NCBI GenBank assembly: GCA_001771135.1
Contig: MESW01000008.1
Coordinates: 153,630-208,521 of the forward strand
Direction: 5' to 3'
DNA: 54,892 bases
Origin: a candidate division CPR3 bacterium GWF2_35_18
GTDB taxonomy: Bacteria > Patescibacteriota > CPR3 > GWF2-35-18
The notes under the pieces are model-generated. The model saw only the letters and a list, made by a program, of their open reading frames with translations, did no database searches and was not told where the DNA came from. The position numbers and the translations under genes were made by a program. Positions 12,561 to 29,481 of this stretch are shown here, one piece after another (the first letter of the stretch is position 1; every line of letters begins with the position of its first letter).

Positions 12561-15500
12561 CTAGTGTTCTTTTAGGATAATTGGCAAGAAAATCTGGTCG
12601 TAATCTGGAGTTGGTTTTTCCAGTACGTGCAAGACCGCTTCAGCAGAAACAGGGTCAGCATTGGTAGCCGTGACGGTCACCGTGTTGGTGAGCGTATCGG
12701 TTGTAATTGCCGTCGTTGCGAAGCTGAAGGTGATCGATTGCTCGACAGACAAGAACCCTGTCCAGTTGATGGTGCCAGAAATCTCTTCGGCGCCGTTCTG
12801 GACGAGCCAGGAGTCGAATTGCAATCCGGCCGGCAGGGCGTCGGTCAAGACCACGCCCGTGGCGATGGTACCGATTGCCAGGTTGGTGACGGTGATGGTG
12901 TAGACGGCGCTGTCGCCGACGAATACTTCGGTAGGCGTCACATCCATCGTGACGGTCAGATTTGTGGAAGGCTCAACTGGCGGCGGGACCGTGCCAATCA
13001 AATCAACAGACCACACATGAGTGTAGCCATTTTTGGTCAGGCCAGCAAAGTAGCCAGTTTCACCATCCTTCCAGAAGATCGGACTGCTCGCTGAGCCGCC
13101 TGGATCAAGTTCACCTGAGTCGAAGTTGATTTGTCCATCTGTTGAATTGAAAAGATGGAAATGACTGAAGTAACTGAGGTCTGAGCATGTGTGCCCTGTG
13201 CAAATAGGTGCGTTGGCGCCGCCGTACACATCGGTATACATAATCCAGACTTCATTTCCATTCAAGTCCAATGCCACCTGTCGTGGGTCATCGTTATAAT
13301 GGTCAACTGGAACTAAAATGTATCCTTCTGGAGTAATGGCCATATTGTCAGAGATTGTATCGTTAGCGTCATACGTCCAGATCACCTGGCCATTAAGAGC
13401 GTCTAGGCGGTAGACTCGCCCTAATCCATCTGCCGTGAAAACAGAGTTACCGTATAGCAGTGGCATATCTCCCATGACCGAGTAAAAGTCGCCATCGTCC
13501 TCCCATATCAATTCGCCAGTTTGAGAATTGAGGGCAAGAACTGCTCCGTTACAGCCACTACAATCTGTAGTGACATAAAGAATTCCATCTTTTACAGACG
13601 GAGCAAAATCGAAGATATGACGACCATCGTTATAGTGCCAGACAGTTTCGCCAGTCAATGGATCTAGGGCATAAAGGCCACTGTTACGAACAGGCACGTA
13701 TAACAGATTGTCTGCCATAGTCATAGTCATGGCCGCGTCATATTCTTCTAAGTCGCGACGCTGCCAGATGATAGGATTGGGGAACTTATCAGGATGAGCC
13801 GCCATGACATAATCAATGGTGTAAGCCCACCCATAGTTATCGCCAAAATAGGCTAGCGTTCCATTGATTACCGGCGTACGGTCGGCGAAGATGCCGATAT
13901 CGTGGCCAGTAGTACAACTGACTGTCCAAACAGGTGTGCCTGTCAAAGCATCCACAGCATAAGTTGTCCCTCCACCAAATGGACCTTGTTTACAACTTGG
14001 TCCACTGCTGACAGTTCTAGTAGCATCCCCAATGATCAAGATAGCACGACCATCTGGCATGTATGCCAGTGCCGGCGTGGCGTCCACGTTGGCGCCGCCG
14101 GTTCGTTCAGACCAGAGGAGCTGAATGCTGGATGGATCGATTTCACTTTCACTGTAACCGGTATGGGCAGCATCTCGCTGGGCCTGTGGCCATTGGGATT
14201 CTGTCACATTCGTGGATACCACGATCTGTGGACCCCAGGACTCAACTTCCTGCCCGGCGTCATCTACTGCCGTGATGGTAGTGGTATACAACGCTGTGTT
14301 GGTGAAGACATTCATCGGTAGCTGAATCGTAGTGCTCATCCAGTCAGTTCCGGACAAAGGATAGGTTTCGCTCAAAACGCGGTTAAGCCAGACTTCGAGT
14401 GTTGCGGTAACGATTTGATGGTCGTCGCGAATGTAGGCGCCGATTTCAATAGTTCCGCCGGCAGGCGTCAACCATTGATCAGGAGTTGCACCACTGACCC
14501 ATGGAGCCGTATCACACCCAGCTCCGAGCACAGCCCGGCAGGGGTCGATCTGACCGTAACCGGTCGCAGGATCGAAACCAGGTTCGCCCAAGTCTTTGAC
14601 GGTAGAAGTGATGACCATCGTGACATCAGCAATCGTCCGGCTGGGATCTTGCTCGATCAGCATTGCGGCGAGCGCGGCGACCTGAGGAGTGGCTGGGCTT
14701 GTACCAGTGACACCAGCGTATTCGTTGCCGGGCACAGGACCGACGATGAGACGATCCCAATTCGGATCACCTGACTGATGATCGCCGCCAGGCGCCATGA
14801 CAAAGTTACCGTCATAACCCCACGTTGAATAGTAAGCCCTGTCAATGCTGTACTTGTTCGCCGTAGCTCCGACTACCACGCCACGAGAATCGCAGGCCGC
14901 CGGATAGTGAAGCTCGTCGAGACCGCTGTTACCGGCGCTAAAATACATAGCAACACCGGCGTCCAGCGTGGCCGAGACTTGGTTACAGAGCGGTTGAGAA
15001 AACCAGGTGCTACCAAGGCTGATAGAAGCGACAGAAACACCTTGATCAACCAGCCATTGCATGCCCTGGATGACATCAGAGTCAGAACATCCAACATTGT
15101 CGCAGGCCTTGGCCATGAACAGGTTGGTTGACCAGTTGAAACCAGTCACGCCTAAACCATTGTTACCAACGGCGCCAGAGATACCGCTCATTAGCGTGCC
15201 ATGCCCATTGTCGTCGTACGGATCGCCGTACGATAAAGTGGTGGTATAAGCAACCACGTTGGCTGCCAGGTCTTCGTGGTCCCAGGCAATGCCGGTATCC
15301 ACGAAGCCGATCGTGACATCAACCGTACCGGTGATTGTTTCCCAAATCCTCGGAAGCTGCAATTGCTGCAGATTCCACTGTTCTTGGTAAATGGGGTCAT
15401 TCGGCGTGACGACAGTCATAATATCCACTGGGCGGATGTAGTCCAGCGCGGCTGAATAACCTTTACGTTTTAGTTCGGCCACGAGGGTTTCTTCTTGACC

Positions 15501-15908
15501 TTCTTGAACCTGCAGCAGTGTTACGTTAGACGTCAATATCTTGGCCGATTGGATTTGAGGCAAGTCTTCGACACGCAGAACAGTATTGCTGGCCTGAACA
15601 ATCACATGGCCGAGTACGTATTCTGTCGAAGTTGGTTCTGCCGCCGGCGTATCGCCGCGTATTAGCGCCAGACATTGATCCCATTGGTCATCATCAATAG
15701 CTGGGTTACGGCCGAACGTAGTGAAGGTTTCGCCATTGATATTTTCTTGGTTGAGTTTCTCTTCGCAAACGGTGCCATCGGCCAGAATTTGAGGTTGGTA
15801 GGAGTTAGGTTGATATTGTTGAGGCGCAGAGGCCTGGGCTGAACTGCTCAGATTACCGAGCAATACCGCCAAAATTAACAGGATATTGATAAACTTGGTG
15901 GGATTCAT
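12561..15908 (-). CDS. Secreted subtilisin-like (S8) serine protease fused to a PQQ/BamB-like beta-propeller and a C-terminal DUF11 repeat domain; GC-rich foreign gene
   Basis: Signal peptide MNPTKFINILLILAVLLGNLSSSAQA. Catalytic triad motifs DTGIAWDHEDL, HGTLMSG and GTSPATPQVAA. Repeated G..VW beta-propeller blades. DUF11-like TVTNLAIG...LTDALPAGL. SD AGAGGA lies upstream. Confidence 0.85.
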   Translation of the reverse strand: MNPTKFINILLILAVLLGNLSSSAQASAPQQYQPNSYQPQILADGTVCEEKLNQENINGETFTTFGRNPAIDDDQWDQCLALIRGDTPAAEPTSTEYVLGHVIVQASNTVLRVEDLPQIQSAKILTSNVTLLQVQEGQEETLVAELKRKGYSAALDYIRPVDIMTVVTPNDPIYQEQWNLQQLQLPRIWETITGTVDVTIGFVDTGIAWDHEDLAANVVAYTTTLSYGDPYDDNGHGTLMSGISGAVGNNGLGVTGFNWSTNLFMAKACDNVGCSDSDVIQGMQWLVDQGVSVASISLGSTWFSQPLCNQVSATLDAGVAMYFSAGNSGLDELHYPAACDSRGVVVGATANKYSIDRAYYSTWGYDGNFVMAPGGDHQSGDPNWDRLIVGPVPGNEYAGVTGTSPATPQVAALAAMLIEQDPSRTIADVTMVITSTVKDLGEPGFDPATGYGQIDPCRAVLGAGCDTAPWVSGATPDQWLTPAGGTIEIGAYIRDDHQIVTATLEVWLNRVLSETYPLSGTDWMSTTIQLPMNVFTNTALYTTTITAVDDAGQEVESWGPQIVVSTNVTESQWPQAQRDAAHTGYSESEIDPSSIQLLWSERTGGANVDATPALAYMPDGRAILIIGDATRTVSSGPSCKQGPFGGGTTYAVDALTGTPVWTVSCTTGHDIGIFADRTPVINGTLAYFGDNYGWAYTIDYVMAAHPDKFPNPIIWQRRDLEEYDAAMTMTMADNLLYVPVRNSGLYALDPLTGETVWHYNDGRHIFDFAPSVKDGILYVTTDCSGCNGAVLALNSQTGELIWEDDGDFYSVMGDMPLLYGNSVFTADGLGRVYRLDALNGQVIWTYDANDTISDNMAITPEGYILVPVDHYNDDPRQVALDLNGNEVWIMYTDVYGGANAPICTGHTCSDLSYFSHFHLFNSTDGQINFDSGELDPGGSASSPIFWKDGETGYFAGLTKNGYTHVWSVDLIGTVPPPVEPSTNLTVTMDVTPTEVFVGDSAVYTITVTNLAIGTIATGVVLTDALPAGLQFDSWLVQNGAEEISGTINWTGFLSVEQSITFSFATTAITTDTLTNTVTVTATNADPVSAEAVLHVLEKPTPDYDQIFLPIILKEH

Positions 15909-16278: not shown

Positions 16279-16842
16279 ATGACAAGCAACAAAAAAGCAT
16301 CATTAAAGCTAGTTATTAAAAAAGGAATAAATTTAACAGAACAAGAATTATCCCAAATAAAAAAGGACATACTGAGAGAATTTAAAATTGCTTTTAATAT
16401 GGATGATCAAGCAAAAGAAAAATTATTTTTCCTTCTTAAACAAGAAAATGCAATTTTGGCAATGGGTTCATTATGGGAAGTCAAACCAGTAATTTTTAAT
16501 GGAGAAAACTTTTCGATATATGGAGTACTTAATGTTATCGCCAATATAAAAGGAAAAGGATACGGAAAACGCATTGTAACCTCTATGATAAAATATCTTG
16601 TTTTCCACAATAAGACCGCGTTTGGGTTTTGTATGCCTCAAAATTCGGGATTTTATGAAAAATGTGGATTTACTATTGATACTGTTTCAACTAAACGGTT
16701 TGTGTATACAAAAGGCAAGGAAAGAATTACGAATCAAGACGGTCAAGTTATATTTTATCAAGACGCATCAGATCATTTCATGGAAAAAGTTTTAGCCTTC
16801 CCCGATCGAAAAGTATCAATTCCAACAGCAAGTCTTTGGTAG
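16279..16842 (+). CDS. GNAT family N-acetyltransferase
   Basis: 187 aa with an acetyl-CoA-binding motif IKGKGYGKRIV (R/Q-x-x-G-x-G/A) and a C-terminal FYEKCGF. Confidence 0.65.
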   Translation: MTSNKKASLKLVIKKGINLTEQELSQIKKDILREFKIAFNMDDQAKEKLFFLLKQENAILAMGSLWEVKPVIFNGENFSIYGVLNVIANIKGKGYGKRIVTSMIKYLVFHNKTAFGFCMPQNSGFYEKCGFTIDTVSTKRFVYTKGKERITNQDGQVIFYQDASDHFMEKVLAFPDRKVSIPTASLW

Positions 16843-17036
16843 ACAATTTATTCTGTTCTATCAAATTGATGTGGATATAAAAATGAAGCAAATAGTACCA
16901 GTTTGGAACCAATTATACAATACATTGGTCCAATGGTCTAAAATCATTCAATCATGGGATGATACTTCTCTACAGCCTAGCTTAGGCATTGCTTACTCTA
17001 ACAATCTCTAACTACTACTATACAATAGCATTATGG

Positions 17037-17114
17037 AATACAAGAATACTAGGTTCAAATTATTGACGGTTATGTAATACAAGAATACTAGGTTCAAATT
17101 ATTGACGGTTATGT
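17037..17114. repeat. Perfect tandem duplication, 2 x 39 bp (AATACAAGAATACTAGGTTCAAATTATTGACGGTTATGT)
   Basis: Read directly: 17037-17075 is identical to 17076-17114. It lies in a 518-bp non-coding region at the left end of the element. Confidence 0.95.
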
Positions 17115-17360: not shown

Positions 17361-18023
17361 TTAAATCTTTACTGTCTCAATCTCTCCACACTCCAAGCAT
17401 TCTTTGATAAAGTAGATCGTTCCGTCATGGGCTTTGGTTTTCTTTTCGTCAACCTTAAATGAATTACACTTTGAGCATTTAAATGGTTTAACAGATTTAC
17501 TATCTTTATAGAATTCTCCGTTATCAAAATAGAAAGCTCTATAGCATTTGTTGATGCATTCATAGAAAAAGATAACCCTATCAGGCTTTTTGAGATCTAG
17601 ATGTAGATGCTTGAATTTAGGAATTGATCTCTCACCACAGGTAGAACAGTTTACTTTAGGAGGTCTTGCTTTCTGAATAAGCATATCTCTCTTTTTATCT
17701 CGTTCCATCCATTCTTTAATTCGGATTTCCTTATTTTCTTTCTGTTCTTTTTGGGTACATTGCTTCCAAACAAGACCAGTTAGAAAATTGGTAAATTGAC
17801 AAAGATTAAGTACTTCTGAATAAGTAATATCAGTGTCCTTCTTTCCTTGCTCTGTATAAATTTTAGATAAGGATTTTCGAGCTACTTTCAGTTCTTCGTC
17901 ACTGATACTTAATTGATCTGTTACTTGTTTTATACGTTCCAATTCTTTTTGACAGATATCATTATAAAGATTTTCGTAATAGGATCTGTTTCGAAGTTCA
18001 GGACCACCGATGATTTCAATCAT
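17361..18023 (-). CDS. Hypothetical protein with two C-terminal CxxC...CxxC zinc ribbons
   Basis: 220 aa with a helical N-terminal half, then CSTC...CINKC and CSKC...CLEC. Divergent from the Rep-like gene across only a 34-bp gap. Confidence 0.45.
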   Translation of the reverse strand: MIEIIGGPELRNRSYYENLYNDICQKELERIKQVTDQLSISDEELKVARKSLSKIYTEQGKKDTDITYSEVLNLCQFTNFLTGLVWKQCTQKEQKENKEIRIKEWMERDKKRDMLIQKARPPKVNCSTCGERSIPKFKHLHLDLKKPDRVIFFYECINKCYRAFYFDNGEFYKDSKSVKPFKCSKCNSFKVDEKKTKAHDGTIYFIKECLECGEIETVKI

Positions 18024-18057: not shown

Positions 18058-19191
18058 ATGTTAGACACAATAAAAATAAACACAACAAAAGCAAAAGTAA
18101 TTGCACCTGTTACGGTCCAAGATATCTATGGTCAATACTATAGAGTAAGACCAAATGAATGGCCGTATATGCAAGCAAAAGAAAAACGATTTATACAATC
18201 AGGACCGTATATAGAAAACTATGGAATTTATTTTCCATCTTTGACTTTTCGTAAGTACAACGAGTTATTTCTTGAGTTTTCTGCTCCAAAGATTGTTTTT
18301 GATAATAACGTCGATGAGTTATCAAATGGAGATAAAACCCTGTTTCTTAATAATTTACATGAACGATTATTAACAATAGGTCTTGAAATTTCTATCGAAG
18401 ATCTCTGGAATAGTAATGTTTCTTTTGCTACCGTATCTAAAAACGTTGTTATCGATACTATTGGAGCATATGAGTTTATCGAGTTTACAAGGCGTCTTTG
18501 GTGGCGATGGCGTCATAGTTTGAAACTTGAAAATTACGAACATGACGGGGTTTGTATAAGAGAATTTAGTTCAACAACTGGTATAGGTATTTATGCTAAA
18601 GTTCCCTCTTTATCGGAAATTGTTAATCCTACAAAGATAGAATTAGAATTTATTGGTAGGCTACAAGATAACAATATTTTACGGTTTGAATATCGTATGC
18701 AGACGTATCAAAGGACACTAGCAAAGTATTCATGGGCAATAGGTTATCATCTAAATGAACTTAGATTAAAAGATATTTTCAGTAGTGAATTATCACAAAA
18801 GATTTTACTTTATGATCTTAATAAATCAATGTTTAGTAACGAGTTTAAGTATATTTCTATGAAATTGCCTACTATAAAAAGAATGTATGAATATCTATGG
18901 GACAAAAATCTTAAACCACAAGAAGAGTTTGCTGTAATAACGGCTTTTCGATTATGCAGTGATTTAGGTATAGAGAAAACTAGAGAGATTTTTGATAAAC
19001 GGTATAGTCAGAGTACTACTAAACGAGTATGGAAATTACTTGATAAAGCATTTACGGATTTTGCGTATCATGATTATGCTAAAATTAGAGATCAGATAAG
19101 TAGATCACTGAATAAATTCGAACCCATAAAAATATCTAATTCAATTTTCAATAACTATTCTAGAATAGATCAGTTAGGTTTACTTGTCTAA
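18058..19191 (+). CDS. Hypothetical protein, possibly a phage/plasmid replication initiator (gene II/X-like)
   Basis: The N-terminus MLDTIKI... and the FSAPKIVFDNNVDEL segment recall gene-II/X type Rep proteins. A candidate catalytic Tyr lies in GIGIYAK. This is motif recall only. Confidence 0.3.
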   Translation: MLDTIKINTTKAKVIAPVTVQDIYGQYYRVRPNEWPYMQAKEKRFIQSGPYIENYGIYFPSLTFRKYNELFLEFSAPKIVFDNNVDELSNGDKTLFLNNLHERLLTIGLEISIEDLWNSNVSFATVSKNVVIDTIGAYEFIEFTRRLWWRWRHSLKLENYEHDGVCIREFSSTTGIGIYAKVPSLSEIVNPTKIELEFIGRLQDNNILRFEYRMQTYQRTLAKYSWAIGYHLNELRLKDIFSSELSQKILLYDLNKSMFSNEFKYISMKLPTIKRMYEYLWDKNLKPQEEFAVITAFRLCSDLGIEKTREIFDKRYSQSTTKRVWKLLDKAFTDFAYHDYAKIRDQISRSLNKFEPIKISNSIFNNYSRIDQLGLLV

Positions 19192-19239
19192 AAATATATG
19201 GTGAAGTATGATGATTAATATACATAAATAATTATATAT

Positions 19240-21264
19240 ATGAAAACAAAACTATCACAAATTTTAAAAGACTCAGAATATAGTTTGAGTCTTTTTTCAG
19301 ATGACTTAATTCATGAGTTAGATTCGAAGATATTCTATAAGGATGAAAAACCATATATTAACTGCATTATTAGAGATAAAGAAATTCTATTAAAACCTGA
19401 AGAAATAGTAAGACAATTATTTACATCAAAATTAATTCATGATTATGGTTATCCTAAAGAACGTATTAAGTTTGAGCATTCTGTTAAATTTGGACGTGAA
19501 GTAAAATCGGCAGATATTGTAATATTCGATAAAGACCGTAGAACAGTAGAATATCTTATTGCTGAAATCAAAAAGCCAAAATTAATTGACGGAAAAGCTC
19601 AATTACGATCCTATTGCAATGCTACAGGAGCTCCTATTGCTGTATGGACTAATGGTGAGGATATTGCCTATTATAATCGTAAAGATCCTAATTACTTTGA
19701 AGATTTAACTGATATTCCAAGTGTAGATCAAAAACTAGAAGATTTGCTAACAGAATCATTTACCTATAGAGATCTTATTATTAACGATAAAATTCCCAAT
19801 AAAGGACTCTCACTAAAAGAAGTGGTCCAAGATATGGAAGATGAGGTCTTGGCTGGTGCAGGAGTTGATTCTTTTGAAGAAGTGTTCAAGCTTATTTTTA
19901 TCAAGCTATTTGATGAAAAAAAGAGAGAACATGACAAGAAAAGGTTATACAAGATTATTGAGAAAAAGCTTGGTGAAGTCACAATGTCTAATTATAAGGA
20001 TGTAAAAGAAGTTTTAAAGCAAGAAGATAATAGTCTTTATGAAGAATTGGAGTTTAGAAATAAAGGGCAGTCTGAAGGTGAATTGAAAAAGAAACTTCAA
20101 AGGCTATTTGATGAAGCAAAACAAGTATGGAAAGGAATATTTTCAGAAGATTCAACTATTCAATTAACACCCTCGCATCTTTCAATTTGCGTCTCAGCCT
20201 TACAAGATGTCAAATTAACTAATTCTAACCTAGATGTAATTGATGAAGCATTTGAATATCTAGTAAGTAAAACAGCAAAAGGTGAAAAGGGACAATATTT
20301 CACACCACGATATGTAATTGATATGTGTGTAAAAATGCTTAATCCTAAACCAGGTGAATACATGATTGATCCTGCCTCTGGTTCTTGTGGGTTTCCTGTT
20401 CATGTGATCTTCTGGTTACGTGAAAGAACAAAAAAACCGATAGAAGAGCTAAAAGATGACATTGCAAAGATATTTGGAATTGATTTTGATGAAAAAGCAG
20501 TCAGAATCGGTAGGACACTTAACATCATTGCAGGTGATGGTCATACCAATGTATTACACCTTAATACTTTAGATTATGAACGTTGGAATGAAACGGTTGA
20601 AAATATAGACTGGATGCTTACCTATGGAGAAGGCTTTAAAAGACTAGAAAAACTAAAAACAGAGAAAGATTCATATAAACAATTCCAGTTTGATATTCTA
20701 ATGGCAAATCCTCCTTTTGCTGGTGATATCAAGGAACCTCGTGTTCTACATAAATACAATGTAAGTTTTAACTCTCAAAACAAAGCAAAATCGGCTGTAG
20801 GACGCGATCTACTTTTCATTGAGAGGAATTTAGATTTTCTAAAACCTGGTGGTAGGATGGCAATAGTTTTGCCTCAAGGGCGTTTTAATAATACCAGCGA
20901 TAAGGAAATAAGAGCGTATATATCAGAAAAAGCTCGTATTTTAGCTGTTGTAGGACTTCATGGAAACACTTTTAAACCTCACACTGGGACCAAAACCAGC
21001 GTGTTATTTGTCCAAAAATGGGATGAGAAACTGTGTCCAAAAAAGAAAGATTATCCGATATTCTTTGCAGTATCAGAAAAAGGTGGAAAGGACAATTCAG
21101 GTGATTATGTTTACCTGAAAGATGAAGAAGGAAATAGAAAAATTGATAAGAAAGGTCATTTAATTGTAGAGCAAGATCTATTTAATCATAATGGCGAACT
21201 TCCTGATGGTGTAGCCGAGGCTTTTTGTGAATTTGCCAAAAAGGAAGGTTTAAGTTTTTCATAA
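19240..21264 (+). CDS. N6-adenine DNA methyltransferase (gamma class, HsdM/BcgIA-like) with an N-terminal HsdR_N-type PD-(D/E)XK domain
   Basis: AdoMet motif I DPASGSCGFPV precedes catalytic motif IV NPPFAG, giving the gamma order. The N-terminus PEEIVRQ...ADIVIFD...YLIAEIKKPK...QLRSY...WTNG matches the HSDR_N_2 nuclease-fold pattern (D...ExK). Confidence 0.85.
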   Translation: MKTKLSQILKDSEYSLSLFSDDLIHELDSKIFYKDEKPYINCIIRDKEILLKPEEIVRQLFTSKLIHDYGYPKERIKFEHSVKFGREVKSADIVIFDKDRRTVEYLIAEIKKPKLIDGKAQLRSYCNATGAPIAVWTNGEDIAYYNRKDPNYFEDLTDIPSVDQKLEDLLTESFTYRDLIINDKIPNKGLSLKEVVQDMEDEVLAGAGVDSFEEVFKLIFIKLFDEKKREHDKKRLYKIIEKKLGEVTMSNYKDVKEVLKQEDNSLYEELEFRNKGQSEGELKKKLQRLFDEAKQVWKGIFSEDSTIQLTPSHLSICVSALQDVKLTNSNLDVIDEAFEYLVSKTAKGEKGQYFTPRYVIDMCVKMLNPKPGEYMIDPASGSCGFPVHVIFWLRERTKKPIEELKDDIAKIFGIDFDEKAVRIGRTLNIIAGDGHTNVLHLNTLDYERWNETVENIDWMLTYGEGFKRLEKLKTEKDSYKQFQFDILMANPPFAGDIKEPRVLHKYNVSFNSQNKAKSAVGRDLLFIERNLDFLKPGGRMAIVLPQGRFNNTSDKEIRAYISEKARILAVVGLHGNTFKPHTGTKTSVLFVQKWDEKLCPKKKDYPIFFAVSEKGGKDNSGDYVYLKDEEGNRKIDKKGHLIVEQDLFNHNGELPDGVAEAFCEFAKKEGLSFS

Positions 21265-21273
21265 TAAAACAAT

Positions 21274-22653
21274 ATGCAATATTCAATAGTAAATTATAGC
21301 GAAATACTAAATCAGTCTGAAAATTTTAGGCTTGATGCTGAGTATTTTAAACCAGAATATTTGAAAGTTCATAACATTATTCAATCTGATTGGTCTATAC
21401 TGAACAATATTGCAAAAATTTCAGATGGAGACCATGCAAAATTTCCTGAAAATCAGAAAGAAAACGTACGATATCTGAGAGCAAAAGATTTGAAAGGAAA
21501 TACTATTTTAAATGATGACCCTGTTTATGTAAGTAACGACTACTTTTTAAAACAAAAAAGATCGTGGATTGAATCGGAAAATATTTTGTTATCCATAATG
21601 GGAAGCGTAGGAGAAATTGCAATAACTCCAGTTGATTTTCAAGTATGTATGGCAAACAGAGCAATTAGTATCATTAAGAAAATAAAAGAAAATCCTTACT
21701 ATATTTTCGTTTTTCTAATTACTATTTATGGTATTAACCAAATTGAAAGGTTACAAGCGGGAGGAGTGCAAGAAAGAATTAATTTGGATGACTTAAGAAA
21801 AATAAGAATACCAAAATTGAGTGACTCATTCGTATTAAAAATTCAAGAGTTAGCTTTAAAAAGGTTTAAGTTAATTGAAAAATCAAAATCTCTCTATACT
21901 GAGGCTGAAAACTTGCTTCTTTCCGAGCTTGGACTTGAAGATTGGAAGCCACAACACAAACTTTCATTTGTAAAAAACTTTTCCGATACAGTCGAAGCCG
22001 AACGGATTGACTCAGAGTATTTTCAACCGAAGTATGAGGAATTACTTAGAAAAATTAAAGAATATAAAAATGGTTTTAATACTCTTAAAAAAATAGTAAT
22101 GTTAAAAGATAAAAACTTTAATCCTGAAAATAAGGAAATTTATAAATATATAGAATTAACAAATATTTCTGATAATGGTGAGATAATAGGTTATACCGAA
22201 TCATTAGGACAAGATCTTCCTACAAGAGCAAGAAGAAAAGTTCAAAGTGATGATGTGATAGTATCTTCAATAGAAGGTTCTCTTGAAAGTGTGGCTTTGA
22301 TAAATGATAAACTGGATAATGCTTTGTGCTCCACTGGTTTTTATATTAATAGATCAAAAGAGATAAATTCGGAAACATTGCTTTGTTTTGTTAGAACTAT
22401 TGCAGGGCAATTACAACTTAAAAAGGGTTGTTCAGGAACTATCCTAACAGCGATAAATAAGCCCGAATATGAAGATATTTTAATTCCAAAGATAAGACCA
22501 AAAATTCAAGAACAAATCAAAGAAAAAATAAATGAAATGTACAAATCAAAACAAGAATCAAAAAACTTTCTTGAAAAAGCTAAAAGAGCGGTAGAAATTG
22601 CGATTGAGGAAAACGAAGATACTGCTATGAAATATCTAAGTACTAACGATTAA
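21274..22653 (+). CDS. Restriction-modification specificity subunit (HsdS-like, two target-recognition domains)
   Basis: Duplicated architecture: each half starts with a RLDAEYFKPEY / RIDSEYFQPKY motif, and conserved helical spacers follow each TRD. It lies 9 nt downstream of the methylase. Confidence 0.85.
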   Translation: MQYSIVNYSEILNQSENFRLDAEYFKPEYLKVHNIIQSDWSILNNIAKISDGDHAKFPENQKENVRYLRAKDLKGNTILNDDPVYVSNDYFLKQKRSWIESENILLSIMGSVGEIAITPVDFQVCMANRAISIIKKIKENPYYIFVFLITIYGINQIERLQAGGVQERINLDDLRKIRIPKLSDSFVLKIQELALKRFKLIEKSKSLYTEAENLLLSELGLEDWKPQHKLSFVKNFSDTVEAERIDSEYFQPKYEELLRKIKEYKNGFNTLKKIVMLKDKNFNPENKEIYKYIELTNISDNGEIIGYTESLGQDLPTRARRKVQSDDVIVSSIEGSLESVALINDKLDNALCSTGFYINRSKEINSETLLCFVRTIAGQLQLKKGCSGTILTAINKPEYEDILIPKIRPKIQEQIKEKINEMYKSKQESKNFLEKAKRAVEIAIEENEDTAMKYLSTND

Positions 22654-22663
22654 TTTAAATACT

Positions 22664-23707
22664 ATGAACCAAAATAAATTACAAAAAGCAATTGAACATT
22701 TCAAAAACTTATCTCAACAATCTACATTTTTAGAGGATGAAAAAGAACGGAAAGAACGGATTCTGTTTTATCAGGATAAACTGAATAAAGATATTTCAAA
22801 TATAGACTTTGAAGAGATGATTGCAAAGTTATGGGCAATGCGGATATGGGGCAACAAAGACTATATAATCCAAAAGATGATAAACGAAAATGGATTGAGA
22901 AAAATGGTCACTGTGTTCAAAAAGGCAAAAGATAGTAATGTAATTGTTTCTGATTTATATGAAGAGATGATTGGAAGTATTAAATACATGGGACCAAGTA
23001 TAGCTACCGAATTATTATGCTATTTTGTCCCTTACAAGGCTGGTATTTGGAATACTAGAGCTCGAGAAGCATTACTATGGTTAGAAATAAAAGATATTCC
23101 ATTAAAATATCGAATTAGTGGCGAAGAATACAAGCATTTTAATACTATCTTGGTATCAATATCACAGAAATTAAAAGAAAACGGTTTTGATGATGTTGAT
23201 TTATTGTTAGTTGATTACTTCTTATGGGAAATTACTGAAAAATTCGAAATAAGCGAAGAGATAAAATCATTACCTAAACAAGATATAAAAAATAAAAGTA
23301 GACATGACGAGCTCAGAGACAAAATTGCGATGATTGGTTCATGGTTAGGTTTTGAAATAGACACTGAAAGACAAATCGCTCATGGAGCAGTAATTGATAC
23401 CGTTTGGGAAGCAAAGATTGCTAATTTAGGTAAGGTTACTTACGTTTTTGAAGTACAAGATAAAGGTTCTATAGATAGTTTGATTCTAAACTTACAAAGA
23501 GCTCAATCTAACTCAACGGTCCAAAAGCTTATAGTGGTTTCAGATGAAGATCAGATTGAAAAAGTTAAAAAGGAAATTGGGACAATGCCAGAAACGTTTA
23601 GAAAAGCAACTAAATTTTGGACAGCAATCGATGTTGATAAAACTTATAATAATCTTGAGCAAGTCACAAACTCAATTTCTCAATTAAATCTAGTAGATGA
23701 AGCATAA
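22664..23707 (+). CDS. Hypothetical protein: N-terminal HhH-like region plus C-terminal nuclease-like (restriction-endonuclease-fold) motif
   Basis: It lies 10 nt downstream of hsdS. The C-terminus HDELRDKIAMIGSWLGFEI...VIDTVWEA...VTYVFEVQDKGSIDSLILNLQRA resembles endonuclease-fold modules (D ... E-x-Q/K). No Walker A motif and no helicase motifs. Confidence 0.45.
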   Translation: MNQNKLQKAIEHFKNLSQQSTFLEDEKERKERILFYQDKLNKDISNIDFEEMIAKLWAMRIWGNKDYIIQKMINENGLRKMVTVFKKAKDSNVIVSDLYEEMIGSIKYMGPSIATELLCYFVPYKAGIWNTRAREALLWLEIKDIPLKYRISGEEYKHFNTILVSISQKLKENGFDDVDLLLVDYFLWEITEKFEISEEIKSLPKQDIKNKSRHDELRDKIAMIGSWLGFEIDTERQIAHGAVIDTVWEAKIANLGKVTYVFEVQDKGSIDSLILNLQRAQSNSTVQKLIVVSDEDQIEKVKKEIGTMPETFRKATKFWTAIDVDKTYNNLEQVTNSISQLNLVDEA

Positions 23708-23884
23708 TAAACGTTCAAAAGTAATTCTGTAGACAAGTATTTTAAATTGTGATATACCATAATAATTAGTTAAATATGAAATACTATGGGTAATAATAAA
23801 ATATTACATATAGTTTATAAATATAAGCCAGTTCATTGGAAGGACTGGCGTTTTTAGTATAAATAGCTCATAAGGAGGTTTCGC

Positions 23885-24832
23885 ATGAAGAAAAAAGATG
23901 CTATCTTCTTCACCAGTTTTATTACTGTTTTAACTTTCGTTTTACTCTCTTTTTTAGAAACACCTGTTAATAAAGTTTTGGCTGAAGCAACTTCCTGGTT
24001 AAATACTGGAAATCATATGTATTCTAATGTATCGGGTTATGTCGGAATTGGAACGACAGCTCCAGGAGTAAAACTTCATGTGTATTCAGGTACTCCAGCC
24101 ACATTGTCTAGTGGTGGATATCTGATGATAGGTAATCAGGCTTCCTCAAATTTAATTATTGATAACAATGAGATTTCCGCCAGAAACAATGGAGTCCATT
24201 CTGATCTTTATCTTCAAGCATTAGGTTCAACCACTTCTGATACTATTATTAATCCTAACGGTGGATTAGTAGGTATTAGAACAAATGATCCTTTAACTAC
24301 GCTACATTTAGGAACAGGTGGACCTACTTTAAGATTAGGAGATGCTTCGGTAGCCGATGGTGGACAGATTGAATGGAGAACTACCTCTGCTAGACATTGG
24401 AATATTGATCAAAATAATGATACTTTAAGGTTCTTTACAGAGAATACTAGTGATGGCGTGGGAGTAGTCAGAATGGCTATAAGTGAGAATGGGAAGTTGG
24501 GATTAGGAATAGATACTCCAGGAACAACTCTTCATGTCTACAATGGTTCCCCAGCTACTCTGACAGGTGGAGGATACATTATGGTTGGAGATCAGGGAGC
24601 GGCTAACATTATTATTGATAACAATGAAATCTCAGCTCGAAATAATGGAAGTTATTCCGATTTGTATCTACAAGCATTAGGAACGAATAGAAATACAATT
24701 ATTAACCCTGGGAATGGAAAAATAGGATTGGGAACCACAGATCCCGACGAAAAATTAGAAGTAAATGGAAATATAAAATTAAATGGAAATATTGTTTCTG
24801 ATGGGAATATCTGTATAGGTAACTGTAATTAA
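23885..24832 (+). CDS. Secreted repeat protein (tail-fibre-like internal duplication)
   Basis: SD AAGGAGG and a signal or anchor sequence. It carries two ~90-aa repeats (about nt 24029-24300 and 24491-24760) sharing GIGTTAPGxKLHVY.G.PATL.GGGY.M.G.Q...N.IIDNNEISARNNG..SDLYLQALG. C-terminal Cys pair ICIGNC. Confidence 0.6.
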   Translation: MKKKDAIFFTSFITVLTFVLLSFLETPVNKVLAEATSWLNTGNHMYSNVSGYVGIGTTAPGVKLHVYSGTPATLSSGGYLMIGNQASSNLIIDNNEISARNNGVHSDLYLQALGSTTSDTIINPNGGLVGIRTNDPLTTLHLGTGGPTLRLGDASVADGGQIEWRTTSARHWNIDQNNDTLRFFTENTSDGVGVVRMAISENGKLGLGIDTPGTTLHVYNGSPATLTGGGYIMVGDQGAANIIIDNNEISARNNGSYSDLYLQALGTNRNTIINPGNGKIGLGTTDPDEKLEVNGNIKLNGNIVSDGNICIGNCN

Positions 24833-27499: not shown

Positions 27500-29101
27500 G
27501 TGTTAAATATGCAACAAACAGCGGTTATATATACAAGAGTATCAACTGAAGAACAAGCCAAAGAAGGAGCTAGTTTAGAGGCTCAAGAAAGACTATGTAA
27601 AGAATATTGTATTAGACAAAACTGGATTATTCTAAAAGTTTTTAGAGAAGATGGTGTGAGTGGTGGTAAGATTGATAGACCAGCTTTACAGAAATTGTTA
27701 GATTACGTATCAAAAAATAAAGGAAAGGTCAATTTTTGCCTTGTTCATAAAATAGATCGATTTGCTAGAGATTTAAGTATTCATGCTCAAATTAAAGGAA
27801 GGTTAATTAAATATGGTGTTGAATTAAAATCTGTAACTGAAGATATCAACAATACTCCAACAGGTAAGGCGATGGAGGGAATGTTAGCCGTATTTTCTGA
27901 ATATTATAGAAATAATTTGAGTTGTGAAGTAAGTAAAGGACAAAGAGAACGTGTTCTACAGGGATATTGGCCTTTTCCAGCTCCAATAGGCTATCTAAAT
28001 GGCTTTAGAGATTCTTTTAATGGTCCAATAAAGAAGTTAAAGAAACCAGATTGTGAATATATTAAGAAAGCATTAGAAGACTTTGCTATTGGAATATTGC
28101 AAACGCCAGCAGATTTTAGAAGGTATTTAAATGAAACTATTAAAAAGTATAAATGGCGAAAAACTCCAATTGCCAAACAACAATCGTTTAACATTTTATA
28201 TAACATTTTTTACGCTGGATATGCCTGTCTACCATCTTTAGGAATACTTCAAAAAGGAAAAAGCGAAAGTATGATTTCTTTAGAAACGTTTCAAAAAGTA
28301 CAGGATCGTTTAAAAGAAAATTCTCGGAAAAAGTATAAACGAATGCCAGTAAATGAAACATTTCCTCTTAAAGAAAAATGTTATTGCTTAGATTGCGGAT
28401 ATAAGATTACAGGAGCATATGCAACTGGAAGATCAGCAAAATATCCTTTTTATCGTTGCGATAGGGGTTGTAAATTAGGAAAAAGGACAAAGAGTATTAG
28501 TAAGGACGATTTTGAAGAAATGTTTGTTATTTATGTTGAAAAAGTCAAACCTCAGAAAAGATATATTAAATTATTTAATGCAGTAATTTTAGATTATTAT
28601 AATAAAAAAATTAATGAAAAGAAGAATAATGTTAAGGAAGCCGAATTTAAAGTAAATACTTTGAAAGAAAGACAAGAACAGTTAATAGATTTGATAACTG
28701 AGGCGAAACAAAAAGGAAATAGCCAAAGAAAAGTACTTTATGAGAATAAGTTAGACCAAATAGAAAATGATTTACTAAGTATGCAAACAGTCAAAAAAGA
28801 TGATGAAATATCGGTTTCTGAATTTGGAACCGTACTTGAAACTTGTAAACAACTATTAGAAAATCCTATTGCACTTTGGAAAAACGGTGATATATACCGT
28901 AAAATAGCGATTCAAAATATGCTGTTCCCTATAGGCTTACAGTATAACGCAAAAATTGGATTTGGAACCACAGAAATAAACGTTGCGTATAGTAGTATCA
29001 AGGCTTTAGAGGATCACCAAACTGAAAAGTCAAACTTGGTGAGCCGCCCGGGACTCGAACCCGGAACAATTTGCTTAAGAGGCAAACGCTCTACCGATTG
29101 A
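27500..29101 (+). CDS. Large serine recombinase (resolvase/invertase N-terminal domain plus recombinase and zinc-ribbon domains)
   Basis: AVIYTRVSTEEQ carries the catalytic Ser. Also present: KIDRPALQKLL, HKIDRFARD, the Cys-rich segment CLDCGYK...YRCDRGC, and a coiled-coil tail. The likely true start is the ATG at 27509. The last 65 nt are antisense to tRNA-Lys. Confidence 0.9.
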   Translation: MLNMQQTAVIYTRVSTEEQAKEGASLEAQERLCKEYCIRQNWIILKVFREDGVSGGKIDRPALQKLLDYVSKNKGKVNFCLVHKIDRFARDLSIHAQIKGRLIKYGVELKSVTEDINNTPTGKAMEGMLAVFSEYYRNNLSCEVSKGQRERVLQGYWPFPAPIGYLNGFRDSFNGPIKKLKKPDCEYIKKALEDFAIGILQTPADFRRYLNETIKKYKWRKTPIAKQQSFNILYNIFYAGYACLPSLGILQKGKSESMISLETFQKVQDRLKENSRKKYKRMPVNETFPLKEKCYCLDCGYKITGAYATGRSAKYPFYRCDRGCKLGKRTKSISKDDFEEMFVIYVEKVKPQKRYIKLFNAVILDYYNKKINEKKNNVKEAEFKVNTLKERQEQLIDLITEAKQKGNSQRKVLYENKLDQIENDLLSMQTVKKDDEISVSEFGTVLETCKQLLENPIALWKNGDIYRKIAIQNMLFPIGLQYNAKIGFGTTEINVAYSSIKALEDHQTEKSNLVSRPGLEPGTICLRGKRSTD

Positions 29102-29112
29102 GCTAGCGGCCC
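29037..29112 (-). tRNA. tRNA-Lys (anticodon CUU), CCA encoded
   Basis: The reverse complement reads GGGCCGC-TA-GCTCAATCGGTAGAGC-G-TTTGC-CTCTTAA-GCAAA-TTGTT-CCGGG-TTCGAGT-CCCGG-GCGGCTC-ACCA. Total 76 nt. Confidence 0.85.
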
Positions 29113-29212: not shown

Positions 29213-29233
29213 AAACGATTGAGCTAGCGGTCC
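29213..29233 (-). pseudogene. tRNA relic: degenerate copy of the 5-prime part of tRNA-Lys
   Basis: AAACGATTGAGCTAGCGGTCC compared with the intact AAACGCTCTACCGATTGAGCTAGCGGCCC: CGATTGAGCTAGCGG is identical, and the T-arm and acceptor 3-prime strand are absent. Confidence 0.5.
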
Positions 29234-29252
29234 GTAATAAATTCAATTGTTG

Positions 29253-29293
29253 CTAGTCCCACAGACTAACGTTCTGAATGAGCTATCAGTCCC
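29253..29293 (-). pseudogene. tRNA-like 5-prime half relic (second, different tRNA)
   Basis: The reverse complement GGGACTGATAGCTCATTCAGAACGTTAGTCTGTGGGACTAG has an acceptor/D-arm-like start and a weak anticodon-like hairpin, but no T-arm. Confidence 0.35.
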
Positions 29294-29481
29294 TAATTTT
29301 TCATTCCGTATTGTAAGGGAAAAATAGCTAGAGGTCAATTAAATACATGATACAAATTATATTTTATTTGTATACTATTTCAGCTTTATATCTTCAATAA
29401 TCCTGTTTACTTGCATTTATTTGTTAATATTTTATATCCTAATTAATTCAATATATTAATAAAAATATTATTAATTCGGAG

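Follow-up and report, generated by a model that had tools for sequence, protein, structure and literature searches.

Does a methyltransferase gene that lies beside a specificity gene, with no gene for an HsdR motor subunit at hand, encode an orphan methylase or a complete restriction enzyme? This question is raised by a locus in a 54,892-nucleotide stretch of contig MESW01000008.1 (positions 153,630 to 208,521) from the candidate division CPR3 bacterium GWF2_35_18. We refer to this whole stretch as the 55-kb window; positions below are window coordinates, and residue numbers are those of the window proteins. The locus begins with an open reading frame (ORF) for a 674-amino-acid (aa) restriction-modification (RM) subunit (19240 to 21264), which is followed 9 nt downstream by an ORF for a 459-aa specificity (S) subunit (21274 to 22653) and, after a further 10 nt, by a third ORF for a 347-aa protein (22664 to 23707), all on the plus strand. 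We consider it quite probable, on sequence grounds, that the RM and S subunits constitute a self-contained, HsdR-independent restriction-modification enzyme that resembles the Type IIB enzymes and would both restrict and modify DNA. A preliminary description of the window had favored a BcgI-like Type IIB enzyme that acts without HsdR, and the match to RM.BsaXI, the alignment of catalytic residues, and the HsdR-free related loci described below all support that choice.

The RM subunit combines two enzymatic domains in a single chain, as the preliminary description had proposed. The Pfam family HSDR_N_2 (PF13588) matched residues 53 to 160 (E = 1.6e-27), which mark the core of an N-terminal PD-(D/E)XK nuclease domain (19396 to 19719, plus strand), and N6_Mtase (PF02384) matched residues 332 to 636 (E = 8e-35), which mark an N6-adenine methyltransferase domain (20233 to 21147, plus strand) that aligns with the methyltransferase of BsaXI. 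The methyltransferase motifs, both invariant in the family, are motif I, DPASGSCGF (residues 377 to 385, 20368 to 20394), and motif IV, NPPF (residues 490 to 493, 20707 to 20718; NPPFAG spans 490 to 495). Because motif I precedes motif IV, the methyltransferase belongs to the gamma class. In the nuclease domain, the putative catalytic residues, assigned by alignment to BsaXI, are E79 (19474 to 19476), D92 (19513 to 19515), E109 (19564 to 19566), and K111 (19570 to 19572); D92 lies in the string ADIVIFD, E109 and K111 lie in YLIAEIKKPK, and the string WTNG occupies residues 136 to 139. All five strings quoted in the preliminary description are therefore present in the protein. The order of parts (nuclease domain, helical connector, gamma-class methyltransferase, short C-terminal helix) was taken from the Pfam coordinates together with the secondary structure of an otherwise poor structural model. 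HsdM_N (PF12161) had no Pfam match in the RM subunit, whose N terminus is HSDR_N_2 instead, whereas classical HsdM proteins from other loci do match HsdM_N. The PADLOC model PDLC03034, labeled "Type I methyltransferase," matched the RM subunit over its full length with 919 bits.

Among solved structures, the closest relative of the RM subunit is a Type IIB enzyme. The single RM sequence already gave RM.BsaXI as its top match in the Protein Data Bank (PDB). With a family profile built from 22 diverse members, RM.BsaXI was again the best solved relative (E = 8.1e-47, 163 bits), and Type I HsdM structures reached at most 92 bits. In the same profile search of the PDB, the N-terminal domain matched the BsaXI nuclease domain separately (E = 8e-5), and no HsdR structure was matched. 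In the profile alignment, E79, D92, E109, and K111 align with BsaXI E73, D90, E105, and K107, respectively. Those BsaXI residues are conserved across Type IIB enzymes, and alanine mutants of E73, D90, E105, or K107 lose cleavage (PMC11997821).

To follow these residues through the family, residues 1 to 190 were searched against 1.8 billion cluster representatives, and 26 full-length matches, which are 38 to 64% identical to the window RM subunit over the nuclease domain, were aligned. Nine residues (E55, Q59, E79, D92, E109, K111, Q121, Y125, and G139) were invariant in all 26 representatives, among which are single-chain R-M-S fusions. A further alignment, A3, comprised 22 full-length sequences with a mean column identity of 28%; 13 of its 18 invariant columns fell in the nuclease domain, and the four catalytic columns were invariant here too. 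As far as these alignments can tell, the E...D...ExK nuclease motif is intact and invariant. The preliminary description had allowed for a family in which a conserved D...ExK is lost; no such loss was seen among the 26 representatives.

The second gene encodes what the preliminary description had called an HsdS-like protein with duplicated target recognition domains (TRDs), and that view held. Methylase_S (Pfam) matched residues 45 to 180, S subunits in the PDB matched residues 279 to 444, in the second half, and many PADLOC Type I specificity models matched the protein as well. Since the two halves align with each other (25% identity, E = 3e-11), the S subunit contains two repeats of a TRD and a conserved region (CR), giving the layout TRD1-CR1-TRD2-CR2. 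With these matches, and those of the RM subunit to HSDR_N_2, N6_Mtase, and PDLC03034, the Pfam and PADLOC searches that had been suggested for these proteins bore out the initial domain assignments.

The family to which the RM subunit belongs is very large. More than 8,000 proteins fell below E = 1e-10 in the family search, and the best 120 relatives, 68 to 86% identical, have the same three Pfam domains in common. When one genome per species was scanned, 80 loci emerged in which the modification (M) protein, the counterpart of the window RM subunit, is 61 to 70% identical to it; these loci span Patescibacteria, Elusimicrobia, Chloroflexota, Planctomycetota, Nitrospirota, Poribacteria, Proteobacteria, Bacteroidota, Melainabacteria, and others. 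The pairing of M with S could be evaluated in 73 of the 80 loci, and in 71 of these the S gene lies 3' of M on the same strand. The two genes are adjacent in 42 loci, separated by one gene in 22, by two in 5, and by three in 2, so that an M-cargo-S layout with one to three unrelated inserted genes recurs in 29 of the 71 (within loci L008 to L087). The cargo between M and S includes RhuM, DUF4145, PIN, MazF/PemK, YhcG/DUF1016, and DUF6119 proteins. This linkage, with variable cargo and without HsdR, indicates that the conserved functional unit is M plus S. An IncF conjugative plasmid of Klebsiella pneumoniae likewise carries the pair, with a 674-aa M and a 463-aa S, and lacks an R gene.

The preliminary description had noted that the window lacks a helicase or translocase HsdR, and this was confirmed at two levels. 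Among the large window ORFs scanned with Pfam, none encoded a helicase or translocase, and phmmer searches with nine queries found no HsdR-like protein among all window ORFs of at least 90 aa. The queries were nine large proteins from the neighborhoods of RM genes, among them one HsdR confirmed by Pfam and two members of an SNF2/PLD-helicase cluster. The same queries brought up no HsdR-like ORF in the 10 kb around any of the 80 related loci. Nine large neighbors that were considered as HsdR candidates were rejected after Pfam scans, as they proved to be histidine kinases, a tRNA synthetase, TPR/TIR proteins, peptidases, an oxidoreductase, or proteins with no match; the other large neighbors in the related loci were checked by phmmer alone.

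These observations bear on the simplest alternative, namely, that the pair is only an M2S methyltransferase in the style of Type I, either orphaned or left as a remnant, whose N-terminal PD-(D/E)XK domain is inactive or otherwise used, or that HsdR is supplied from elsewhere in the genome. Such a reading is in line with the database labels, which call the family Type I M (PADLOC PDLC03034 and JGI names), and with the S subunit, which is a typical Type I S subunit; the search for hsdR, moreover, covered the 55-kb window and 10 kb around each related locus only. However, a nuclease motif that is invariant family-wide and conserved at least as well as the methyltransferase motifs argues against an inactive domain, as does an N-terminal domain whose similarity to the proven nuclease of BsaXI exceeds that to any HsdR structure. 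The 80 loci without HsdR within 10 kb and the lack of an HsdM_N domain in the RM subunit point the same way, as do single-chain R-M-S fusions, which occur among the relatives, and an analogous pair in Zymomonas mobilis, which restricts despite loss of the only hsdR (PMC8432527). We therefore regard both a methyltransferase without nuclease function of its own and dependence on an HsdR from elsewhere in the genome as unlikely.

The fusions just mentioned were found among the longer relatives of the RM subunit. Four relatives of 1105 to 1210 aa were scanned; HSDR_N_2 and N6_Mtase were present in every one of them and Methylase_S in two, and a 906-aa relative has all three domains together. By their domain content, these three-domain relatives correspond to Type IIB enzymes such as AloI and CjeI, in which the R-M-S layout occupies a single chain. 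Such single-chain forms are documented among Type IIB enzymes (PMC11997821). A possible further case is a 1179-aa RM-family gene on plasmid pAQ6 of Synechococcus PCC 7002 (locus L171, 6998 to 10537), which is 57% identical over the M part and annotated merely as "N-6 DNA methylase"; its length would allow an R-M-S fusion. The methylome of PCC 7002 includes a bipartite motif, GGA(N5)CTTC, to which no enzyme has been assigned (PMC12362590), and the pAQ6 gene is for that reason a candidate for the enzyme responsible.

How might an RM and S pair of this kind work? By the layout that it shares with BcgI and BsaXI, it would form an ATP-independent restriction-modification enzyme, and by analogy with BsaXI the complex is probably an (RM)2S heterotrimer. 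If it behaves as characterized Type IIB enzymes do, the two dissimilar TRDs of the S subunit would read an asymmetric bipartite site. Each half-site of host DNA would then be methylated at one adenine by the two methyltransferase domains. Where DNA lacks this methylation, the pair of N-terminal nuclease domains, attached via the helical connector, would cut near the site. Cutting would probably take place on both sides, with Mg2+ and S-adenosylmethionine and without ATP, and, to extend the analogy, at a fixed distance from the site.

Several points weigh against a self-contained nuclease. The AlphaFold2 model of the RM subunit is poor, with a predicted local distance difference test (pLDDT) score of 54 from an alignment of 44 sequences that are all ~70% identical, too low for the model to confirm the predicted nuclease-methyltransferase. 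To our knowledge, no member of this exact clade has been reported to cleave DNA. The window RM subunit lacks the "knob" and "paddle" elements of BsaXI, and because two paddle residues are also needed for cleavage by BsaXI, the cutting geometry may differ. The absence of HsdR pertains to 10 kb around each related locus and to the 55-kb window rather than to whole genomes. In PADLOC, the family is classed as Type I M, and in the related methylation-associated defense system (MADS) a similar M-S pair works alongside further effector genes.

The third gene offered another possible source of nuclease activity. Its product consists of an Ogg/EndoIII-like helix-hairpin-helix domain and a C-terminal PD-(D/E)XK nuclease domain. 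No Pfam model matched the protein above threshold, but PF21790, the "OGG-like glycosylase" model, does reach its threshold in some homologues. Both single-sequence and profile searches of the PDB gave only chance matches, and only fold comparison was informative. The AlphaFold2 model of this protein is confident (pLDDT 91.5; predicted template modeling score [pTM] 0.86; 62 sequences). In Foldseek comparisons of the model with the PDB, the N-terminal half matched archaeal and Thermotoga 8-oxoguanine glycosylases (PDB codes 3knt, 3n0u, and 3fhg; probability 0.94 to 1.0, target TM-score 0.5 to 0.59), and the C-terminal half matched the PD-(D/E)XK enzymes EcoT38I, BsaWI, BamHI, and NucS/EndoMS. 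E216, D245, E263, and K288 are invariant in the alignment of the third-gene family.

With such a neighbor, the locus might be a three-component system in which M and S mark and recognize DNA and the 347-aa PD-(D/E)XK protein is the actual restriction nuclease; the preliminary description had likewise raised the possibility that the module relies on the downstream gene. The spacing of only 9 and 10 nt between the genes is compatible with this idea, as are the confidently modeled nuclease domain with its four invariant residues, the frequent adjacency of the third-gene family to methyltransferases, and the sole strong terminator-like hairpin of the region, which sits after the third gene. This hairpin (23827 to 23849, plus strand), a consensus match only, has a stem of 8 pairs, of which 5 are G-C, and a T run behind it. 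A promoter-like site, identified by consensus scan (TTGTCT, 17-nt spacer, TATGAT; 19184 to 19212, plus strand), lies 28 nt 5' of the RM start codon; it is weak evidence, because the number of promoter-like sites in the region is not above the shuffled expectation. The tight spacing, together with the presence of a terminator-like hairpin only after the third gene, suggests that one transcript spans all three genes.

The distribution of the third gene, however, does not fit a dedicated role. None of the 80 related M-S loci contains it; in its place stands other cargo or nothing at all. Its own family, with 1,703 matches, was sampled in 50 metagenome loci with at least 3 kb of flanking sequence, and neighbors within three genes were recorded. 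Twenty-seven of the 50 had an RM-type neighbor, of several kinds: a beta-class methyltransferase in 9, an MmeI/Eco57I-like methyltransferase in 7, a classical HsdM in 5, HsdS in 4, an SNF2-PLD protein in 4, the window type of M in only 3, and HsdR in 1. Homologues also stand alone, beside Type I genes with HsdR, or next to DISARM- or BREX-like genes. This absence from the M-S loci and the varied contexts elsewhere indicate that the third gene has no dedicated partnership with M-S, and the idea that the module depends on it was not upheld. The architecture also fits the END nucleases, and these work by themselves against hypermodified DNA (10.1101/2025.03.31.646159). A three-component system in which the third protein does the cutting is therefore very unlikely, and the third gene is probably a separate, independent defense nuclease rather than part of the RM enzyme.

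The modeled third protein is most like the published END nucleases. In these enzymes, an inactivated EndoIII/Ogg domain that senses hypermodified bases is fused to a nuclease; one of them, END-Mag, has a NucS-like PD-DExK nuclease and a sensor similar to those archaeal Ogg structures, and it restricted phages with modified guanine (10.1101/2025.03.31.646159). The third protein shares with END-Mag the fusion of an Ogg/EndoIII-like domain to a NucS-like PD-(D/E)XK domain and the archaeal and Thermotoga Ogg templates; the likeness is drawn from architecture and fold, and the END-Mag accession MDV2503288 was not among the ten third-gene homologues that came from NCBI. The segment GPSIATELL...GIWNTRA can be set by eye, without gaps, against what we take to be the helix-hairpin-helix of EndoIII; this presumed alignment places Ser or Ala at the catalytic Lys and the near-invariant Asn130 at the catalytic Asp. 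From this we infer, though not rigorously, that the glycosylase Lys and Asp may be replaced in the third protein by Ser/Ala and Asn130. An END-type nuclease would probably attack hypermodified phage DNA that escapes the RM enzyme, and the element appears to pair an RM enzyme directed against unmodified DNA with an END-type nuclease directed against hypermodified DNA, a concept that is not new. We read the third gene as one more interchangeable cargo gene that complements the RM enzyme and is not a substitute R subunit.

The recurrence of cargo invites a broader proposal, namely, that the M-S operon is a motor-less RM "platform" that recruits interchangeable effectors. This proposal starts from the unusual conservation of M across many phyla, at the 61 to 70% identity given above, and from cargo that includes RhuM, DUF4145, PIN, MazF, YhcG, and DUF6119 proteins and, here, an END-type nuclease. 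That such effectors cooperate functionally with the RM complex seems to us unlikely, and it is just as doubtful that inhibition or bypass of the RM enzyme sets them off, as opposed to their being mere hitchhikers in the operon.

The preliminary description had also placed the RM genes on a mobile element, and this is plausible. A large serine recombinase with Resolvase and Zn_ribbon_recom domains is encoded downstream (27500 to 29101, plus strand), and its 3' end overlaps a tRNA-Lys gene (29037 to 29112, minus strand); it likely serves the RM-bearing element as its integrase. The closest relative for which gene context was available, locus L088 (M 82% identical), has the order 376-aa protein, HTH_17 protein, M, S, 278-aa protein, and serine recombinase, the last in the same relative position as in the window. 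Directly 5' of the RM gene, the window encodes a 377-aa protein (18058 to 19191, plus strand) that has no Pfam, NCBIfam, PADLOC, or PHROG match. It is 24% identical (E = 9e-16) to the 376-aa protein of L088 (1258 to 2388), which occupies the same position, and it is probably a core gene of this family of serine-recombinase elements. From the shared layout and the homologous upstream gene, we conclude that the RM pair rides on a family of small integrative elements. The window contains no second copy of the 3' half of tRNA-Lys, and the left end of the element is thus undefined; serine recombinases need no long repeat. Beyond tRNA-Lys, on the minus strand, lie sequences that resemble orphan 5' parts of tRNA genes, at approximately 29214 to 29236 (83% identical to the 5' part of tRNA-Lys) and 29270 to 29294. 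Earlier integrations at a tRNA cluster may have left them behind as scars.

Other features of the window were noted in passing. A 39-nt unit occurs twice in tandem, with 97% identity between the copies, at 17031 to 17108 in an intergenic region flanked by an acetyltransferase gene (16279 to 16842) and a gene for a 220-aa Cys-rich protein on the minus strand (17361 to 18023); the tandem could be a regulatory site or a replication or recombination site of the element. Downstream of the third gene, a gene for a 315-aa protein (23885 to 24832) contains a direct repeat of 166 nt (24060 to 24225 and 24516 to 24681; 71% identical) and therefore encodes an internally duplicated protein, which probably carries a signal peptide. 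The two genes that follow it look secreted or membrane bound and have no family match. Farther upstream, positions 12561 to 15908 encode a 1115-aa secreted-looking protein with a subtilase S8 domain, a PQQ/BamB-like beta-propeller, and DUF11. The block containing this gene has a G+C content of ~52%, compared with 30 to 37% in the rest of the window, and could be a recent horizontal acquisition or an assembly chimera.

The main practical point of this analysis concerns annotation. Thousands of M-S pairs of this family are labeled "N-6 DNA methylase" or "Type I M" and have no R subunit, and with such labels they look like orphan methylases or incomplete systems. The alignment with BsaXI indicates that they are probably complete motor-less restriction enzymes, and they should not be read as orphan methylases or as incomplete Type I systems. 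Enzymes of this kind would hinder transformation of the hosts that carry them, including bacteria with the Klebsiella plasmids and cyanobacteria, and the family is a possible source of new Type IIB specificities. Where the preliminary description had seen a candidate atypical defense system, that label was too strong: the family has thousands of members in many phyla and a PADLOC model of its own, a functional precedent exists in Zymomonas (PMC8432527), and an evolutionary rationale for a "motor-less Type I" enzyme has been published (PMC6158711). The architecture is not atypical, and the pair belongs as a routine member to a very large family, one that databases already list but probably under the wrong label.

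The pair shares with the Type I systems EcoKI and EcoR124I the TRD-CR-TRD-CR organization of the S subunit, a gamma-class N6-adenine methyltransferase, and an expected M2S core. Unlike those systems, however, it has no HsdR motor, and its M subunit has a nuclease domain in the place of HsdM_N; in the profile search, HsdM structures also scored far below BsaXI.

The closest named models in NCBIfam come from MADS, and the pair could on that account be the methylation core of a partial or divergent system of this kind. MAD2 (E = 8e-88; the match spans residues 39 to 637 and includes the N-terminal domain) and MAD5 (E = 2.5e-37) were the best NCBIfam matches, and the PADLOC mad2 and mad5 models matched too. 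The scores, however, are far under the curated equivalog cutoffs (295 versus 720 for MAD2 and 129 versus 400 for MAD5), and generic RM models in PADLOC scored much higher. The third gene and the upstream ORFs at 18058 to 19191 and 17361 to 18023 match no MADS component in NCBIfam or PADLOC, the ORFs 3' of the third gene lying outside that scan. With sub-cutoff scores and no partner genes among the scanned neighbors, we rejected an identity with MADS, and even a divergent relative of that system is extremely unlikely here.

In the Type IIB enzymes of the RM + S group, which include BcgI, BveI, Hso63250II, and HpyUM, a nuclease domain is followed by a helical connector and by a methyltransferase domain like that of EcoKI, and one C-terminal helix serves to bind the S subunit (PMC11997821). 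The window RM subunit has the same N-terminal PD-(D/E)XK domain, helical connector, and gamma-class N6-adenine methyltransferase in one chain as the Type IIB enzymes BsaXI (PDB code 8w0p), BcgI, and BaeI, and it shares with them a separate two-TRD S subunit and the lack of a translocase. It is much shorter than BsaXI (674 versus 916 aa) and has no counterpart of the long insertions that follow the methyltransferase core of that enzyme, which are taken to include the knob and the paddle. The similarity to BsaXI is detectable at the profile level only, and the likeness to BcgI is drawn from described architecture.

A published functional precedent for this RM + S architecture is HsdMSc of Z. mobilis ZM4, which consists of an HsdR_N-HsdM fusion and an HsdS (ZMO1934 and ZMO1933) without a cognate HsdR (PMC8432527). 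It has the same nuclease-methylase fusion and S subunit as the window pair, to which we liken it by its described architecture; its reported restriction is weak. HsdMSc methylates CAGN4CTG and lowers the conjugation of plasmids that carry this site, and deletion of the sole hsdR of Z. mobilis ZM4 leaves its restriction unrelieved (PMC8432527).

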